Origin: Candidatus Rokuibacteriota bacterium
GTDB lineage: Bacteria > Methylomirabilota > Methylomirabilia > Rokubacteriales > CSP1-6
Reading direction: 5' to 3'
Length of the DNA: 64,000 bases
Assembly: GCA_003220345.1 (NCBI GenBank)
Contig: QHSC01000080.1
Location: forward strand, 5,999-69,998
Shown: one piece after another, positions 2,212 through 61,218 of the stretch
Layout of the letters: each line of letters opens with the position of its first letter
Position numbering within the stretch: position 1 is the first letter of the stretch
Position numbers and translations under genes: made by a program
Notes under the pieces: generated by a model
Seen by the model: only the letters and a program-made list of their open reading frames with translations
Database searches by the model: none
Told to the model about the DNA's origin: nothing

Positions 2212-2442
2212 CCGGGCACGGTACGGGGCCAAGTTCCGAGCCACATCTGCTCAGCCCTCGCCTAGGGCTTTTCCCTCAGCTCGAACCACCACGCCCGAGG
2301 GAGCCGGCAACGCGAGGCGTACGTAGGTGTACGTTGAGCGTTGCTGGCGACCGAGAACGCGGCCGTTCGAGCCGAGCCGCTCTGCCGCGAGGCGAGAGCT
2401 AAATAGAACTGGCGAAGGAAATTGGCCGCGTAACCTGCCCGG
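2212..2442. repeat. Rod-like palindromic dispersed repeat, family A copy 1
   Basis: Long imperfect inverted repeat with apex GCGTAC-N6-GTACGT; colinear with 33554-33770 with compensatory substitutions. Confidence 0.85.
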
Positions 2443-2443
2443 G

Positions 2444-3250
2444 TCAGTCGACCCGCGCGACTGTCAGCACCCCCACCGCGGCCGCGCCCGCGCGGGTCAG
2501 GCAGCGGGCGCATTCTCCCGCCGTGGCTCCCGTGGTCAGAATGTCGTCGACGAGCAGCACGTGACGGCCGACGATGAGCTCAGGCCGGCGCGCGACGAAG
2601 GCGCCCCGGACGTTCTGGCGGCGGGCCGCGGCGTCGAGGTCGGTTTGCGGCGCGGTGGCCGTCGCTCGGCCGAGCGCATCGAGGGCAACGGGTACGCCCC
2701 AGACCTGCCCGAGGCGCGTGGCGAGAAGGGCCGACTGGTTGTAGCCACGCGCTCGCTCGCGGCGCGCGTGGAGCGGTACGGGCACGAGCAGATCGGGCGC
2801 GGCTCCCGGCAGCGCCCCCAGGCCGAGCTCGGCCAGCAGCTCGGCGAGCGGGGCCGCCAGGGCGCGGCGGCCGCCGAACTTGAAGGCGTGAAGCGCCTCC
2901 CGCGCGATGGGTCCATAGCGCACCGCTGCCCGCGCATACGAAAATGGCCTCCGTCGCGTCCGGCACTCGCCGCAGAGCCCCTCGATGGACAGCGCGACGC
3001 CGCAGCGTCGGCACCATGGAGGCGCGAGGCGCTCGAGACCCTGCCAGCATGTCCCGCACAGCGGATCGCGGCGGCCCGCCCCGAGCGGCGCCTGACACAC
3101 GGGACAGAAGGGTGGGAAAAGCAGGTCGAGGGCGGCCGTGAGCCATGGCCAGACGTGGGAAGGCTTCGGAAGGGGGACGGAGCCCTCTTCCGAGCTACCT
3201 AGGGGCGCGACGTGTTCCAGCGCCGGCACGACGGGCAGCGCTCGATCCAT
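2444..3250 (-). CDS. comF: ComF family phosphoribosyltransferase-like protein (start uncertain)
   Basis: LDLLFPPFCPVC double Zn-ribbon, RGYNQS, VLLVDDILTTGAT; nearest in-frame ATG (3250) overlaps the upstream gene. Confidence 0.88.
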   Translation of the reverse strand: MDRALPVVPALEHVAPLGSSEEGSVPLPKPSHVWPWLTAALDLLFPPFCPVCQAPLGAGRRDPLCGTCWQGLERLAPPWCRRCGVALSIEGLCGECRTRRRPFSYARAAVRYGPIAREALHAFKFGGRRALAAPLAELLAELGLGALPGAAPDLLVPVPLHARRERARGYNQSALLATRLGQVWGVPVALDALGRATATAPQTDLDAAARRQNVRGAFVARRPELIVGRHVLLVDDILTTGATAGECARCLTRAGAAAVGVLTVARVD

Positions 3251-4485
3251 CGGCCGTGCTCCGCGCCGCAGGAGGCGCAGCGGTGCGGCCACTCGAAGGT
3301 GCCGGTGGACTGGAGCGCGCGGCGGTACTCCAGCAAGGCCTCCGCCGGCTGTCCCCGGCGCTCGAAGATGGCCCCCAGGTAGGCGTGCAGGCCCGGAAGG
3401 TCCGGGGCGCGCACCTCCACCTTCTGGAACTGGTCGGCCGCCTCGTCGAGCATGGCGAGCTCGAAGTAAACGCGGCCGAGGGCGAAGGCGAGGGCGAGGC
3501 TTTCCGGAGCGCGGGCGCTCGCATCCTGGTAGAGGGCGATCATCCGGGTGGGCCGCCCTCCGTCGCGATAGAGCTGCTCGACGCGCGCCAGGAGGGGCAG
3601 CGCGGGATTCGTTTCGAGCGCACGCTCCCAGACGCGGAGCGCCTCTCGACTGTCACCGCTCCGGAGATGCGCGTCGCCCAGGGCCACGGTGGCGGGGAGG
3701 AAGTCCGGCTCCGCGCGCAGCGCCTCGCGGAAGCGGCCGATGGCGGGCTGAATCTGCCCCTGCCCCAGGAGCGATCGGCCGAGCTCGAAGTAGATCCCCG
3801 CCAGCCAGGCCTGCTCGGTCGATCGCTCGGCGGGGCTGGCGGATGCCTCGAGGCGCTCCTGAGCCTGCAGGGCGCGCGTCCAGTCCCCGCGCTCCGCGCT
3901 CAGATCGCGGAGCGCGCGCATGGCGGTCAGGTGGTCCGGCGCCTTGACGAGCAGCCGCTCGAGCATGGCGGCTGCGTCGTCGGGCCGGCCCGCGCGCCGG
4001 TAGTCTTCCGCAGTCGCCAGCACGAGCTCGGGACGGTCGTCCGTGCGAAGCGCGTCGAGGTGGTGCACGAGGGCACCATGGGCGTCGCCGCGCTCGAGGG
4101 CCATCTCTCCCAGGCGCGCGTGGGCCTGGGCGTGATCGGGGAACCGCTTCAGGAGCTCGCCATAGGCCTGGATAGCCGCCTCCGGCCGACCGGAGAGCTG
4201 GGCATCTACGCCGCGGTGGTAGAGATCGTCGAGCGATTCCGATCGCCGCGCGTCGCGGGTGCGCTGATAGTCGGCGTAGGTCCGGCGAAGATCCCGGGCG
4301 AGTCCGAACAGGAAGGCGAAAACGGACCCCGCGAGAAAGGCGCCCACCACGAGGGCGACCAGGGGGACGTCCCAGGCCCAGTCCGTGGACAGCGCAACAC
4401 GGACACGGGTGGCATTCACCGAGGCGAGATACGCGACAGCCGCCCCGAACGCCAAGGCCACGAAGACGCCGGAGCGAACGGACAC
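3199..4485 (-). CDS. lapB: LapA-LapB-like fusion (N-terminal TM segments, TPR repeats, C-terminal rubredoxin-like domain)
   Basis: Two hydrophobic segments then TPR repeats; C-terminal CASCG...WIERCPSCRRWNT; GTG start 4485. Confidence 0.75.
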   Translation of the reverse strand: MSVRSGVFVALAFGAAVAYLASVNATRVRVALSTDWAWDVPLVALVVGAFLAGSVFAFLFGLARDLRRTYADYQRTRDARRSESLDDLYHRGVDAQLSGRPEAAIQAYGELLKRFPDHAQAHARLGEMALERGDAHGALVHHLDALRTDDRPELVLATAEDYRRAGRPDDAAAMLERLLVKAPDHLTAMRALRDLSAERGDWTRALQAQERLEASASPAERSTEQAWLAGIYFELGRSLLGQGQIQPAIGRFREALRAEPDFLPATVALGDAHLRSGDSREALRVWERALETNPALPLLARVEQLYRDGGRPTRMIALYQDASARAPESLALAFALGRVYFELAMLDEAADQFQKVEVRAPDLPGLHAYLGAIFERRGQPAEALLEYRRALQSTGTFEWPHRCASCGAEHGRWIERCPSCRRWNTSRP

Positions 4486-5951: not shown

Positions 5952-7210
5952 CTACTCCCGCACCTGGCCGTCACCCATGACGACGAACTTGGTCGTGGTC
6001 AGCTCCCGCACGCCCACCGGCCCGCGCGCGTGCAGCCGCGATGTCGAGATCCCCATCTCCGCCCCCATGCCGAACTGCGAGCCGTCGACGAGGCGCGTGG
6101 AGGCATTGACGACCACGGCCGCCGCGTCGATCTCCTGGGTGAAGCGCCGCGCGCGGCGGAGGTCCGAGGTGACGATCGCCTCCGCGAGCCCCGAGCCATG
6201 GCGCCGGATATGGTCGACGGCCTCCTCGAAGCTCGCCACCACCCGCACGGCCAGGATGTAGTCGAGGTACTCCGTGTCCCAGTCGCTCTCCGCGGCCGGC
6301 CGCGCCGCGGGCACCAGCGCGCGCGTGCGCTCGCAGCCGCGCAGCTCCACGCCCGCGGCCTGGAGGCGGACGGCCGCCGCGGGCAGGAAGCCCTCGGCCA
6401 CCGCCGCGTGGACGAGGAGTGTCTCCGCCGAGTTGCACACGCTTACCCGCTGCGCCTTCGCGTTCACCACGATCGCCGCGGCCATCTCCAGATCGGCGCT
6501 CTCATCGACGTAGACGTGACACAGGCCCCTGTCGTGCTTGAGCACGGGCACCGTGGCCTTCTCGGCGACGAGGCGCACGAACTCCTCCCCCCCGCGAGGA
6601 ATGATGAGGTCGATGTACCGGTCGAGGGTGAGCATGCTCATCACGGCCGCGCGGTCAGCGGTGTCCAGGACCTGCACGGCCTCCGCGGGAAGGCCGGTCT
6701 TCTCCACCGCCCTCGCCAGCACCTGGGTGATGGCCGTGTTGGAGTCGAGCGCCTCGCTCCCGCCTCGCAGGAGCACCGCGTTGCCCGACTTCAGGCAGAG
6801 CCCGGCCGCATCCGCCGTCACGTTGGGACGGGACTCGTAGATGAACCCGACGACGCCGAGAGGGACACGCACCCGCGAGATCTCGAGGCCATTGGGCCGC
6901 CTCCACGCGTCCACGGTCTCCCCCACCGGATCCGGGAGGGCCGCGATCTGGCGCAGGCCCGTCGCCATCTCCGCGATGCGGGCCTCCGTCAGGGTCAGGC
7001 GATCGAGAAAGGCGCGGGTCAGCCCCGCCGCGCGCCCGCGCTCGAGGTCGCCGCGATTCGCCTCGATGATGGCCGCCGTCTTCTCCTCGAGCCCGCGCGC
7101 CATCTGCTGGAGCGCCTCGTCCTTGGTCCGGGTCGAGGCGAGAGCGAGGGCCCGGGCCGCTGCCTTGGCCGCCCGCGCCTTGCCGGTGACGTGCGCCGCC
7201 GCGTCCATGA

Positions 7211-7217
<7 letters not shown>
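5952..7217 (-). CDS. proA: Gamma-glutamyl phosphate reductase
   Basis: VPLGVVGFIYESRPNVT, GAEMGISTSRLHARGPVG. Confidence 0.97.
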
Positions 7218-9378
<2,161 letters not shown>

Positions 9379-31958: not shown

Positions 31959-33506
31959 CTAGTCGCCCGAGGGCGTGGCTGGCTCCTGCGCGGCGGCCAG
32001 CTCGTGAGCCTGCCCGGCGGGCACGAGGAAGGCCGAGGCCAGCGCGGCCACCGCGACCACGAGCCCCACGACGAAGACGCCGCCCACCGCGTGCGCCATG
32101 GCCGGGCGCATCTGGGCGAGCACGTCGGCCCCGAGGGCCACGCGGGTGATCGGATTGACGATGAGGTCGGGGTGGGCCACGGTCTCGCGCAGCCGGTCTT
32201 GAAGCTCGGCGGGGGCGGCGGCGAGCAGCCCCGACAGCTCCTGGTGAAGGCGCTGCGCCATGACCGAGCCCATCACCGCCACACCCACCGCGCCGCCGAT
32301 GCTACGGAAGAAGCTGGTGAGCGAGGTGGCGGAGCCGAGCATCGAGCGGGGAACGGCATTCTGCACGGCGATGAGCATGGGCACGAACACGAGCCCCATG
32401 CCCACACCGGCCAGGCTGATGTCGCGCATGGCAATGCCCCGCGTGAGCCCTTCATTCCACCCCGCGAGGAGCACGAAGGCCGCGGTGAGCAACAGCATGC
32501 CCACGAACACGATCGAGCGGTATCCCACGCGCAGCACGAGCCGCGCGGCAAGGACGGAGAAGACCACCCAGCCGATCACGAAGGGCACGAGCACGATACC
32601 GGCCTCGGTTGCGCTGGTGCCGGTGACCGCCTGCAGGAAGAGCGGCACGAACGTGATGGCGCCGAACATGGCCATGCCGGAGAGGAAGCCCGTCACCGAG
32701 GCGGCCCGGACCATGGGATTGGCGAAGAGGGCAAGAGGAACCACCGGCTCGGCAGCCCGCCGCTCGATCAGGACGAAGACGACGAGGAGCACCGCGGAGA
32801 GCCCGAGAAGGGCGAGCACCGAGGGTCTCCACCACGAGGCCCCGCGGCCTCCCTCGAGGAGCCCGACGAGAAGCGCGGAGATCACCGCTGCGAAGACGGC
32901 CGTACCCGCGTAGTCGAACGCAGAGGCACGCCGCTCCGATCGTTCGCTCGCCAGTCCCCATCGGATCGCCGCCATGGCGAGAAGGCCAAAGGGAAGATTG
33001 ATGTAGAACACCCAGCGCCAGGACACGGCGTCCGTGAGCACGCCCCCGATGACCGGTCCCACGAGGGAGGCGACGCCCCACACGCCCGAGAAGTACCCCT
33101 GCATCTTGGCGCGACGCTCGAGCCCGTAGAGATCGGCGATGATGGTCATGCCGATGATGATCAGCGAGCCCGCCCCGAGTCCCTGGATGGCGCGGAAGGC
33201 GATCAGCTGGGCCATGGTCTGCGACAGCCCCGAGAGCGCCGAGCCCACGAGAAACAGGCTGAGCCCCACCAGGTAGACGCGCCGGCGACCGTACTGGTCG
33301 GCCAACCGGCCCCAGAGCGGCATGGTCACCGTCGAAGCGAGGAGGAAGCCCGAGAAGGTCCAGGAGTAGATCCGGATTCCGCCCAGGCTCGCGATGACCG
33401 TGGGCATCGCCGTGGCGACGACCGTCGACTCCATGGCCGCGAGGAACATGGAGGCCATGACGCCGGCGACCACGAGCCTGCGGTGTGGCTCGCCGGGCGT
33501 GACCAC
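31959..33506 (-). CDS. MFS drug resistance transporter (DHA2, EmrB/QacA-like)
   Basis: GRLADQYGRRR, RAIQGLG, GPVIGG, WRWVFYINLP. Confidence 0.92.
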   Translation of the reverse strand: MVTPGEPHRRLVVAGVMASMFLAAMESTVVATAMPTVIASLGGIRIYSWTFSGFLLASTVTMPLWGRLADQYGRRRVYLVGLSLFLVGSALSGLSQTMAQLIAFRAIQGLGAGSLIIIGMTIIADLYGLERRAKMQGYFSGVWGVASLVGPVIGGVLTDAVSWRWVFYINLPFGLLAMAAIRWGLASERSERRASAFDYAGTAVFAAVISALLVGLLEGGRGASWWRPSVLALLGLSAVLLVVFVLIERRAAEPVVPLALFANPMVRAASVTGFLSGMAMFGAITFVPLFLQAVTGTSATEAGIVLVPFVIGWVVFSVLAARLVLRVGYRSIVFVGMLLLTAAFVLLAGWNEGLTRGIAMRDISLAGVGMGLVFVPMLIAVQNAVPRSMLGSATSLTSFFRSIGGAVGVAVMGSVMAQRLHQELSGLLAAAPAELQDRLRETVAHPDLIVNPITRVALGADVLAQMRPAMAHAVGGVFVVGLVVAVAALASAFLVPAGQAHELAAAQEPATPSGD

Positions 33507-33553
33507 TAGTGCGACTCCGACGGGCACTGGGAACAACTCGCGGATGACCGCAG

Positions 33554-33770
33554 AGTGCCGGGCCAAATGACGAGCCACATTAGCTCAGCTCTCGCCTCGG
33601 GGCTTCGCCCCTCAGCTCGAACTGCCACGTCCGAGGAAGGCAGCAACCCGAGGCGTACGTGGGTGTACGTTGAGGGCTGCTGCCGACCGAGAACGTGGCG
33701 TTTCGAGCTGAGCGGCTCCGCCGCGAGGGGAGGGCTGAGTAGATCTGGCGAAGTCAGTTGGCCCGGCACT
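33554..33770. repeat. Rod-like palindromic dispersed repeat, family A copy 2
   Basis: 13-bp terminal IR AGTGCCGGGCCAA/TTGGCCCGGCACT; colinear with 2212-2442. Confidence 0.88.
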
Positions 33771-34095
33771 AGTGGCCTCCGGTGCACCCGGCGCAGCGGC
33801 ACAGGGCGCGGAGTGCGCGGAACGGGTAGAGGCTCTCGTGGCCGTCCGACCATGTCACGCGGAGGCCGTCGGGCTGCTTCTTGATGTCCTTGGGCCAGCC
33901 CATGGCCTGGGTCAGCGCTGCTCCCGCCTCGATCGGGTGGGCGGGATCGTCGAGGCGCAGCCGCTCGAAGGGATAGATGCTCGCGTGGTTGTCGGCCCAC
34001 GTGACTCCGAGCGCGTAGCGGCCGACCAGATGCACATCCTTGGGCTCGTCGGGATTCGGCTGGCCGAGGATGGGCAGGCTGACCTTGATGGCCAT
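33769..34095 (-). CDS. DUF971 (gamma-butyrobetaine hydroxylase N-terminal-like) protein, two repeats
   Basis: VGRYALGVTWADNHASIY; VTWSDGHESLY...LRALCRCAGC. Confidence 0.85.
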   Translation of the reverse strand: MAIKVSLPILGQPNPDEPKDVHLVGRYALGVTWADNHASIYPFERLRLDDPAHPIEAGAALTQAMGWPKDIKKQPDGLRVTWSDGHESLYPFRALRALCRCAGCTGGH

Positions 34096-59770: not shown

Positions 59771-61218
59771 GTCCGGGTTCGTTCCAGTCTGGCCACGGCC
59801 TCGATGTGGGGCGTATGCGGGAACATGTCCACCGGCTGCACCCACTCCACGCGATAGCCCGCCCGCGCGAGGTCCCCGAGATCGCGGGCGAGCGTGGCGG
59901 GGTTGCACGAGACATAGATGATCCGCGCCGGAGCGAGGTGGGCGAGAGCCGAGAGGGCCTTGGGATGGAAGCCCGCCCGGGGCGGGTCGGCCACCACCAC
60001 CTGCGCCGCCACGCCCTGGGCGATGAGCTGGGGCAGGACGAAGCGGACCTCGCCGGCGAGGAAGGTGCAGTTGGCGATCCCGTTGGCGGCGGCATTGCGG
60101 GCGGCGTCGTCCACCGCCGCCTGCGCCACCTCGACACCGTAGACCCAGCGGGAGCGCGCGGCGAGGAGCAGGCTGATGGCGCCCGTGCCCGCGTAGAGGT
60201 CGAACACCGTCTCGTCGCCCGTCAGGGCCGCCGCCTCGAGGACGATGGCGAACAGGCGCTCGGCCTGGGCGGTGTTGGTCTGGAAGAACGAGTTTGCCGA
60301 GACCTGAAAGCTCAGGCCGCCCACGGACTCGCGGATATGATCGCGGCCGCCGAGCAGGTGCTCCTCGACGCCCACGGCCACGCTCGCCTTCTTGGGATTC
60401 ACGTTCATCACCACGCTCGCCGTCTCCTTCACCCGCGCGGCCAGCCGCCCCGCGAGCGGCTCGAGCTCGGAGACCGCGGGCGAAGAGGTGACGACGTTGA
60501 CCATGGCTTCGTCCGTCCGCCGTCCCTCGCGCAGCATGAGGAAGCGCAGGAGCCCCTCGCCCGAGTCCTGCTCGTAGGCGGTGAGCCCGCGCTCGACGAA
60601 GAAGCGGCGCGCCTCGTCCAGCAGGGCGTTCATCCGCTCGGACTGCAGCAGGCAACGGTCGACGGCGAGGACACGGTCGTAGCGCCCGGCCTCGTGCAGC
60701 CCCACGGTGAGGTTTTTACTCAGCCCTCGCCTCACGTCTTCGTCCTTCGGCTCGAACTGCGGATCGTCGGCAGCGTCTTGGCTCGAAATGCGCCCTTGCC
60801 GCTCGCGCGCCACCGTGAACTCCATCTTGTTTCGGTAGCCGTACGTCTCGGGGGCCGCGAGTATGGGCCGCACCTCGATCGGGGGCAGGCCTCCGAGCCG
60901 CTCGAGGGCGTCGACAACCTGCTTGCTCTTGAAGGTCAGCTGGGCGGCATAGTCGATGTGCTGCAGTCGGCAGCCGCCACATCGCCCAAAATACGGGCAG
61001 GGCGCCTCCACCCGGTGGAGAGACGGGGTCAGGATGGCCTCGATGCTGGCCCGGCCGAAGCGCGCCCGCGCCTGATCGAGCCTCACCTGGAGACGGTCGC
61101 CGGGTATGCCGCCGCGCACGAAGATCACATAACCGTCAACCCGACCGACACCTTCGCCGCCGAACGCGAGGTCGTCGATGGTCACGGAAAGACTCTGGCC
61201 GCGCTGCGGTCGGCCCAT
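59767..61218 (-). CDS. rlmD: 23S rRNA (uracil-1939-C5)-methyltransferase with TRAM domain
   Basis: CPYFGRCGGC, SFFQTN, DPPRAG, YVSCNP, DMFPHT; contains a repeat-derived insertion. Confidence 0.93.
   Translation of the reverse strand: MGRPQRGQSLSVTIDDLAFGGEGVGRVDGYVIFVRGGIPGDRLQVRLDQARARFGRASIEAILTPSLHRVEAPCPYFGRCGGCRLQHIDYAAQLTFKSKQVVDALERLGGLPPIEVRPILAAPETYGYRNKMEFTVARERQGRISSQDAADDPQFEPKDEDVRRGLSKNLTVGLHEAGRYDRVLAVDRCLLQSERMNALLDEARRFFVERGLTAYEQDSGEGLLRFLMLREGRRTDEAMVNVVTSSPAVSELEPLAGRLAARVKETASVVMNVNPKKASVAVGVEEHLLGGRDHIRESVGGLSFQVSANSFFQTNTAQAERLFAIVLEAAALTGDETVFDLYAGTGAISLLLAARSRWVYGVEVAQAAVDDAARNAAANGIANCTFLAGEVRFVLPQLIAQGVAAQVVVADPPRAGFHPKALSALAHLAPARIIYVSCNPATLARDLGDLARAGYRVEWVQPVDMFPHTPHIEAVARLERTRT
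60719..60760. repeat. Family A repeat remnant inside rlmD
   Basis: 35/42 identical, ungapped, to the left arm of the 33554 copy. Confidence 0.75.

Follow-up and report, generated by a model that had tools for sequence, protein, structure and literature searches.

The window analysed here, 64,000 nucleotides of a Candidatus Rokuibacteriota genome (C326:5999-69998 of assembly G000, called the own genome below), holds two intergenic copies of a long hairpin element that we name family A. Family A adds a new, nested member to a hairpin-repeat family of wide distribution, and its behaviour resembles that of miniature inverted-repeat transposable elements (MITEs), repetitive extragenic palindromes (REPs) and enterobacterial repetitive intergenic consensus (ERIC) sequences. 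We put at roughly 0.6 the probability that it is a non-autonomous, gain-and-loss DNA repeat of this MITE, REP or ERIC kind, built from two nested repeat families. A sequence-only reading of the window had proposed a non-autonomous mobile element with a selected fold, or else a structured RNA, a proposal that agrees with what we found: the hairpin is multicopy and covaries, has no Rfam counterpart, and leaves empty sites in related genomes. The repeat is also a marker of recent gain and loss among closely related soil genomes, and it alters stop codons, with a change from TAA to TAG at two sites. The own assembly comprises 5.63 Mb in 429 contigs at 68% G+C, with a completeness of 96.6% and a contamination of 7.3%.

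The hairpin DNA is gained or lost as a unit, since the closest relative, G001, entirely lacks both window copies at the corresponding sites. At the copy-2 site (G001:C144), query positions 1-609 and 871-1501 map one base apart, with flanks that are 95-97% identical; G001 reads GACCACTA-T-TAGTGGCC and the own genome GACCAC-TA-[~261 nt]-TA-GTGGCC, so that the stop codon at this site is TAA in the former and TAG in the latter. This site is empty in all seven same-genus genomes that have both flanks, with 1-29 nt between the flanks (6-29 nt in G002, G003, G004, G006, G008 and G009). At the copy-1 site (G001:C35), query positions 1-709 and 943-1656 map to 6506-7215 and 7216-7929, and exactly 233 nt (2209-2441) are missing. 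Five of seven same-genus genomes (G001, G002, G004, G005 and G009) are empty here; G003 has at this position an element of a second subtype, the N-type described below, accompanied by a TAA to TAG change, and G006 has another family-A variant at the same junction, flanked by the 9-nt direct repeat GGTCAGTCG. Family A itself was matched by DNA in all nine same-genus genomes.

Similar polymorphism was seen on a second contig of the own genome, C337, where one A-basic, one N-type and one A-variant element are each empty or reduced in one to four relatives and orthologous family-A copies differ in module content. One N-type site in this comparison, filled in G001, has CTAG on both sides, and four relatives have a single ...AGCTAG/AGCTAA. 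Repeats at the target sites consist of CTAG/TA at this one N-type site and of 8-9 nt at three A-type sites: the 8-nt CACTAGTG (or TA) that brackets the copy-2 insertion, the 9-nt repeat in G006 and about 8 nt in G002. The direct repeat at copy 2 may be a target-site duplication, of either 8 bp or TA. Opposite the A-variant at G000:C337:21081-21215, G006 (L221/L227) has just TGGGC-GT-GACCC, the outermost bases of both ends, a remainder suggestive of an excision footprint or of a deletion mediated by the hairpin.

Two smaller repeat families, one nested in the other, make up family A. Alignment of the 15 longest copies resolves four modules: ends common to the copies (CACTGGGCCAAGTTGCGAGCC... 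and ...GGCGAAGCAAATTGGCCCAGTG); a hairpin of about 67 nt in the centre, which bears the apex motif; unit A, a 46-nt repeat present once in each arm in opposite orientations; and variants, in which the left unit A is missing (four copies) or an extra unit A sits in the apex loop (four copies). The features of the window, in window coordinates, are as follows.

2209-2441, no strand assigned: copy 1 block of 233 bp missing in the closest relative G001, where the flanks are contiguous.
2212-2442, plus strand: copy 1 hairpin (predicted fold), with an outer stem, 2212-2218 / 2436-2442, found in copy 1 alone.
2219-2249, plus strand: copy 1 family-A left terminus (15-copy alignment).
2250-2293, plus strand: copy 1 nested unit A, left arm (nhmmer match C326:8248-8291).
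2294-2359, plus strand: copy 1 core hairpin (model R1 match C326:8273-8374), with the cross-phylum apex motif at 2314-2338.
2361-2402, minus strand: copy 1 nested unit A, right arm, inverted (nhmmer match C326:8359-8400, minus strand).
2403-2435, plus strand: copy 1 family-A right terminus (15-copy alignment).
2444-2446, minus strand: stop codon TGA of the DZR_2/phosphoribosyltransferase-domain gene 2444-3292, 2 nt from the copy 1 hairpin.
33504-33511, plus strand: CACTAGTG, left copy of the 8-nt direct repeat flanking the copy-2 insertion; right copy at 33767-33774, with TA at 33507-8 and 33770-1.
33509-33769, no strand assigned: copy 2 block of about 261 bp missing in G001 and six other same-genus genomes (flank mapping).
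33509-33553, plus strand: extra 45 nt inserted along with copy 2, holding GCACTGGGAAC; like the family-A left end by eye only.
33554-33770, plus strand: copy 2 hairpin (predicted fold).
33554-33583, plus strand: copy 2 left terminus (15-copy alignment).
33584-33629, plus strand: copy 2 nested unit A, left arm (best nhmmer match, C326:39582-39627).
33630-33695, plus strand: copy 2 core hairpin (R1 match C326:39605-39714), with the apex motif at 33650-33674.
33694-33739, minus strand: copy 2 nested unit A, right arm, inverted (nhmmer match C326:39692-39737, minus strand).
33740-33770, plus strand: copy 2 right terminus (15-copy alignment).
33769-33771, minus strand: stop codon TAG of the GBBH-like_N gene 33769-34095; its G is the hairpin's last C, and the codon is TAA in G001.
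60719-60760, plus strand: solo unit A, outside any hairpin element (nhmmer match C326:66717-66758).

The element is abundant in its genome. With the two window copies as queries, blastn finds 92 places in the 5.63 Mb, about eight of them full length and seven module variants, and a covariance model of the core, R1 (built from 30 cross-phylum sequences, with 33 pairs), has 62 matches among the 150 scored of 4068 candidates. About 38 of these 62 belong to the N-type, a subtype close to the Nitrospira form, and about a dozen elements in the genome are "A-basic", that is, family-A elements lacking unit A, with a hairpin of about 140 nt. Unit A has 110 matches of its own (nhmmer, three rounds, E up to 1e-3), which occur solo, in tandem, in apex loops and in arms. 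With a length of 140-260 bp, no coding sequence, many copies and terminal inverted repeats (the whole element is an imperfect palindrome whose ends, CACTGGGCCAAG and CTTGGCCCAGTG, are common to the copies), the element has the general make-up of a MITE. Unit A is itself a mini-hairpin between two CTCAGC words; many solo units have common flanks, ...CCCCCTGATCTA before and a GGCCCTCTCCCCC-N4-GGGGGAGAGGG hairpin after, and others stand in tandem arrays. Such units look like further composite elements.

The two window copies lie where the sequence-only reading had placed them, at 2212-2442 and 33554-33770, with 84% mean column identity when aligned. Each folds, as claimed, into one long hairpin, with a minimum free energy (MFE) of -137.7 kcal/mol for copy 1 (z -7.7) and -167.9 kcal/mol for copy 2 (z -13.5); in neither case did any of 200 dinucleotide shuffles do as well. 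The apex GCGTAC-N6-GTACGT is found in the sequence, as are the substitutions said to preserve pairing (TTCC/GGAA versus TGAC/GTCA, and GCCGGCAACGC/GCGTTGCTGGC versus GGCAGCAACCC/GGGCTGCTGCC); the word CCACTAGTGC reported near copy 2 stands at 33503-33512. The four-way junction fared less simply. Its two mini-hairpin words, GGGGC-TTC-GCCCC and GCGGC-TCC-GCCGC, are present, but in the MFE fold they pair across the arms of a continuous rod. Forcing the mini-hairpins costs 1.2 kcal/mol in copy 1 and 3.5 kcal/mol in copy 2, and with so small a difference rod and junction are both plausible folds of family A.

Covariation in the stems is strong. Compensatory changes occur in 24 of 33 pairs among the 30 cross-phylum sequences. 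In a larger set of 79 distinct sequences, whose alignment was fitted to the model, standard pairs fill 89.2% of pair cells compared with 61.9% (standard deviation 0.7) in shuffles, none of 500 of which reached the observed value, and sliding the partners by 1-3 columns leaves 32-38% paired; double changes occur in 27 of the 33 pairs, with 710 compensatory cells where 246 are expected. The same signal is found within the genome: 24 N-type copies, with a mean pairwise identity of 80%, have 78 compensatory, 17 one-sided and 23 broken cells, and a small number of stem positions hold most of their variation. Covariation extends to the five terminal base pairs of family A (GGTAC/GTACC, GGCAC/GTGCC, GGTCC/GGACC, GGCGC/GCGCC). 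We considered whether this terminal stem might be a duplicated palindromic target, an explanation that fits GTAC and fails for the non-palindromic cases, and rejected it.

These observations can be combined in a model of how family A may propagate. The host element is an imperfect palindrome of about 140 bp, whose apex and purine-rich loop words are held constant across phyla and whose stems are free to vary so long as they compensate; in this genus it bears the ends CACTGGGCCAAG... and ...CTTGGCCCAGTG. Insertion of the 46-nt unit A once into each arm, in opposite orientations, has lengthened the rod to about 220 nt. New copies would arise by insertion beside stop codons, with CTAG/TA as the probable target of the commonest subtype. 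An intact single-stranded fold, of DNA or RNA, may be needed for propagation or for tolerance of the copy, a need that would explain the predominance of double, compensating changes even between recent paralogues.

The core reaches far beyond this genus. It consists of about 140 nt with the apex GAGGCGTAC-N6-GTACGTTGAG, purine-rich internal loops and covarying stems. We scanned one genome per species with the pattern GAGGCGTACNTNNNNGTACGTTGAG, whose 20 fixed bases should by our arithmetic give about one chance match in 596 Gb on two strands; at least 119 stretches matched, and 80 of them (L043-L122) were examined. Among the matches listed, exact apex matches come from metagenome-assembled genomes (MAGs) of about ten phyla, and the motif is in every case the apex of a 110-140-nt hairpin. 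By record title, Nitrospira/Nitrospirota are the most frequent carriers in this list, which bears out the likeness to intergenic repeats of Nitrospira-like genomes that the sequence-only reading had pointed to: many Nitrospira/Nitrospirota MAGs hold the apex motif. The other listed carriers are Candidatus Methylomirabilota/Rokubacteria, Geobacter and other Desulfuromonadales, Syntrophales, Acidobacteriota (Bryobacterales, Thermoanaerobaculales, Terriglobia), Planctomycetales, Myxococcota, Saccharibacteria, Uhrbacteria, a gammaproteobacterium and the isolate Sporomusa sp. KB1; family-A-like flanks are confined, among the same matches, to Methylomirabilota/Rokubacteria records. Conserved words stand in the 5' arm (...AAGGC...) and the 3' arm (...AACG(A/C)(A/C)G...), with entirely different stems between them, and the words ...CTCAAAAAGGTCCAGATGC... 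and ...GCAGATGGGCCTTTTTCAG... are also common to many lineages.

Copy number is high in several of these lineages. R1 has at least 129 matches in one Nitrospirota genome (150 candidates scored), 66 in a Nitrospira genome, 33 in a Bryobacterales genome, 19 in a Geobacter genome and 17 in Sporomusa. It matches 32 of 41 relatives, some genomes of 89-100% completeness having no match, and, in a sample of the phylum, 112 of 151 genomes, with no more than 21 candidates scored in each; these tallies include the unpublished genomes G018, G083 and G129. Palindromic intergenic repeats are mostly genus-specific and quick to decay. Here the same 25-nt apex and loop words recur across many phyla, copy numbers reach more than 100 in a genome, and the hairpin is in no RNA family library. 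Rfam 15 gave no gathering-level match in the window, none on the element at E up to 1 for 20 loci from other phyla, and for the two copies at E up to 10 a chance-level signal recognition particle match alone (16 bits, E 3.8), so the already described RNA family that might have accounted for the repeat did not appear. IMG/VR viral contigs and PLSDB plasmids gave no matches to the element. Literature searches on Nitrospira, REPs, MITEs and Rokubacteria found no description of this hairpin family, and searches with strings of its sequence returned primers only.

One published element is a probable relative. "Predicted short RNA elements" of Geobacter metallireducens, present in 24 copies (e.g. 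Gmet_R1005 = GSU0160.1), are, like the core, intergenic and multicopy, and have the central palindrome GRCGTAGCGCTGCTACGCC (Aklujkar et al. 2009, PMC2700814). This palindrome has no exact match in 242 loci and, at two mismatches, one match in the own genome; the Geobacter genome G044 has 42 at up to two mismatches, several of them within a few kb (C1:208019, 209347, 211288). The flanks of the G044 matches, read in reverse, have the same word order around the apex as the core, and R1 matches one of five of these loci at a weak score (E 0.007). The apex differs, with GTAG/CTAC there and GTAC/GTAC in the core. The shared layout and the one weak model match suggest that the Geobacter element is probably a diverged relative of the core, and not that the two belong to one family. 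The passages of the 2009 paper that deal with the element place it in Geobacter and Desulfotalea only and mention neither mobility nor a stop-codon rule; a search for GSU0160.1 and Gmet_R1005 found that paper alone.

Family A can be compared with several known repeat systems. The ERIC sequences or intergenic repeat units (IRUs) of Enterobacteria, 127-bp imperfect palindromes, are likewise long, imperfect, intergenic and multicopy; they have size variants produced by extra sequence at fixed internal sites and compensating changes that suggest a selected fold, and they, too, have no known transposase. There is no sequence relation, however, and family A differs in its cross-phylum apex, its stop-codon placement and its nested second repeat family. 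MITEs of the IS630/Tc1-mariner type and the Correia elements of Neisseria, which duplicate TA, share with family A their shortness, lack of coding sequence, inverted-repeat arms and presence/absence polymorphism. CTAG/TA flanks one N-type insertion, and the IS630-family element of the own genome uses the same target beside a hairpin; in contrast, the arms are unlike the IS630 ends examined, there is no co-occurrence with the transposase, and A-type copies have repeats of 8-9 nt or none. REPs, their bacterial interspersed mosaic elements (BIMEs) and the hairpin-forming REP doublets (REPINs) resemble this family as mosaics of small palindromic modules in alternating orientation, with compensated hairpin changes and frequent placement directly after stop codons. 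They differ in unit length, 20-40 nt as opposed to 140 nt, and we found no REP-associated tyrosine transposase (RAYT) flanked by the repeats described here.

Several observations weigh against reading family A as non-autonomous mobile DNA. A consistent target-site duplication, which the sequence-only reading had proposed to look for, was not found: lengths vary across the sites examined and copy 1 has no direct repeat. The "empty" sites could be precise deletions and not pre-insertion states, and traces are present at two sites, a 12-nt remnant in G006 at one and an extra TAT in G001 at the copy-2 site. Conservation of apex and loop words in about ten phyla would not be predicted for a selfish MITE in decay. 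The 15 composites, all of which lie between predicted genes, comprise 5 sense and 5 antisense to co-directional genes, 4 divergent, 1 at a contig edge and 0 convergent, and the 14 with genes on both sides have no orientation bias. No insertion sequence (IS) or RAYT/TnpA gene with matching ends, the other expectation, was found among the IS630-type and Y1 elements examined. The sole Y1_Tnp gene of the own genome, which encodes 294 aa with a helix-turn-helix (HTH) domain (L042 1365-2350, G000:C210), is bracketed by an unrelated 24-nt inverted repeat, GGGGTCAGGTCTCACATTCCTACA, and Y1_Tnp is present in 11 of 41 relatives and missing in 30, so a RAYT link was rejected. An IS630 link was also rejected. 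The one IS630-family element of the own genome (L215 838-1995, G000:C109) is intact, encodes a 362-aa DDE_3 + HTH transposase and has duplicated TA, and it sits in CTAG at the end of an N-type hairpin that bears unit A; it thus has the CTAG/TA target in common with the hairpins, but its ends (GTGTCGTGAG.../...CTCACGAGAC) are unlike the hairpin arms in a comparison that covered the own genome, two Nitrospirota genomes and one Bryobacterales genome. DDE_3, present in 21 of 41 relatives, does not track the hairpins, being missing in the hairpin-rich G006, G012, Geobacter G044 and Sporomusa G045 and present in the hairpin-free G014. A search of the own genome found no pair of arms flanking an open reading frame (ORF). 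Because MAGs often lose IS copies, a missing autonomous element is weak evidence.

Two smaller points arose from this search. The word TGAAAAA(C/G)G, common to IS630 ends and the N-type arm, was taken as chance. The Y1_Tnp gene together with GGGGTCAGGTCTCACATTCCTACA is arranged like a RAYT that has a different REP of its own.

A more far-reaching form of the mobile-element reading is conceivable, though we hold it as tentative and somewhat doubtful. The core may be a previously unclassified, horizontally spreading element, whose apex and tandem G.A loops are recognised by an enzyme that is neither IS630-type nor Y1 and that places the hairpin exactly at stop codons in a preferred orientation. 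If true, this would be a mobile 3'-end module common to Nitrospirota, Methylomirabilota, Desulfobacterota, Acidobacteriota, Patescibacteria and Firmicutes.

The placement against stop codons is precise to the base, which makes both site choice and any action on termination or mRNA ends testable questions. Genes were positioned with our own crude ORF caller, which predicts 3431 genes in the own genome. On one side of copy 1 the DZR_2/phosphoribosyltransferase-domain gene stops, and on the other a glyceraldehyde-3-phosphate dehydrogenase gene starts; copy 2 is likewise bounded by the stop of the GBBH-like_N gene and by the start of a gene for a major facilitator superfamily (MFS) transporter. 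The minus strand carries all four genes, and the 3' end of each copy abuts an opposite-strand stop. The end of copy 2, as noticed from the sequence, supplies such a stop, CTA at 33769-33771 being the TAG of the minus-strand ORF 33769-34095. This ORF matches PF06155 GBBH-like_N (E 4e-16), which we take to be the former DUF971.

Genome-wide, 20 of 34 N-type copies have the 3' end of the purine strand within 5 nt of the stop of an opposite-strand ORF of at least 100 codons, and 19 of these 20 stops are TAG, compared with 35% TAG among the 3431 predicted genes (TGA 57%, TAA 8%). Seven of 18 A-type copies abut a stop likewise (4 TGA, 2 TAG, 1 TAA). At loci from other phyla, where ORFs of at least 60 codons were bounded by 240-nt flanks, 28 of 73 have an opposite-strand stop no more than 4 nt from the 3' end, and only 5 of 73 a same-strand stop as close to the 5' end. 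CTAG is nine-fold depleted in the own genome (1839 occurrences against about 16,600 expected from base composition), and an element that sought CTAG/TA would therefore land mostly at TAG stops. Such targeting accounts for the TAG pattern of the N-type and leaves the A-type copies beside TGA and the orientation preference unexplained. Nor is a stop codon required, given the copies in tRNA-gene spacers of Sporomusa and Uhrbacteria.

This placement also raises the possibility that the hairpin is a cis-acting module of mRNA 3' ends, one that follows the stop and ends or pauses transcription, blocks 3' exonucleases or slows ribosome release, and is kept for tuning expression. We judge this unlikely, although it would be compatible with mobility. 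In addition to the stop codons so close to one end in N-type and cross-phylum copies, it would account for loop words that stay constant across phyla and for the orientation bias of the basic forms, the 62 core matches comprising 22 antisense, 15 convergent, 11 sense, 7 overlapping a gene call, 4 at a contig edge and 3 divergent. In the N-type and Nitrospira forms the inner hairpin is preceded by A5 and followed by T5, the layout of a two-way intrinsic terminator, with the T5 of N-type copies inside the outer stem. E. coli REPs within 15 nt of a stop codon are reported to stall ribosomes (PMC12306157), which offers a precedent. Nonetheless, family A has no T-run after the hairpin: its copies are followed by GGGTCAGTCG and TAGTGGCC, and not by the U-run that completes the G+C-rich hairpin of an intrinsic terminator. 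The mRNA-sense fold is weaker by 13 kcal/mol on average and its loops are pyrimidine-rich, copies also stand in divergent promoter regions (4 of 15) and tRNA spacers, and close relatives do without the element beside these genes and show no sign of compensating for its absence.

The better fold of the opposite, purine-rich strand would suit a multicopy structured RNA that acts in trans and has its own promoter, with apex and tandem G.A loops that bind a conserved protein. We consider this improbable. Of the two strands the purine-rich one is the better folder, by 13 kcal/mol on average, as seen in 48 of 51 own copies and in 77 of 79 from across the phyla; two G.U pairs in the apex are invariant in the 79 sequences, and the probable Geobacter relative was described in 2009 as a "predicted short RNA element" (PMC2700814). 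Beyond these two apex pairs, however, G.U pairs are about equal on the two strands (95 versus 83 and 230 versus 199), so that we rejected G.U counts as a sign of the acting strand: nearly all of the asymmetry is due to the invariant apex and the G.A loops, and it is not decisive. No conserved promoter was seen upstream, and more than 100 copies per genome, with presence and absence between sister genomes, are unlike an RNA gene.

In favour of this reading, two of three RNA-library runs compared, both metatranscriptomes of one study, have 151-nt contigs inside the element at a depth of about 2, one at 33568-33718 with one mismatch, another (run X19) an exact match to 33688-33771 that then diverges; the third run has contigs on the neighbouring gene only. 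As contigs are blind to strand, ends and level, and DNA can occur in RNA libraries, nothing firm follows on transcription. Past the terminal TA the X19 contig continues ...GTCTCGTGA..., resembling the end of the IS630-family element, which hints at another strain with this element inserted at the hairpin's end. No DNA contig joined across the element, and those of the best DNA run stop inside the hairpin: the repeat breaks assemblies.

It is very improbable that the hairpins are attC-like recombination sites of integrons, bottom-strand hairpins that follow ORFs and are recognised by structure: they do stand directly after or overlap a stop codon, with the better-folding strand antisense to the ORF and with variable stems and constant unpaired features, but gain and loss affect only the hairpin and leave the gene in place, the apex and not the base is conserved, no RYYYAAC/GTTRRRY boxes are visible at the ends by inspection, and the copies are scattered and form no arrays, no search for an integrase having been made.

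Two further settings of the core were seen in other lineages. The hairpin occurs in tRNA-gene spacers of Uhrbacteria, a gammaproteobacterium and Sporomusa sp. KB1 (L057, L068, L110, L174, L179, L184, L189), and in Sporomusa the tRNA-spacer hairpins recur in several near-identical tRNA clusters. In Bryobacterales, hairpin copies have long identical flanks in common, and one MAG (L073 390-498) has, on the strand of the hairpin, a group II intron domain 5/6 match of 47 bits, above gathering, whose end is about 65 nt upstream; the hairpin may there travel with a group II intron or serve as its target.

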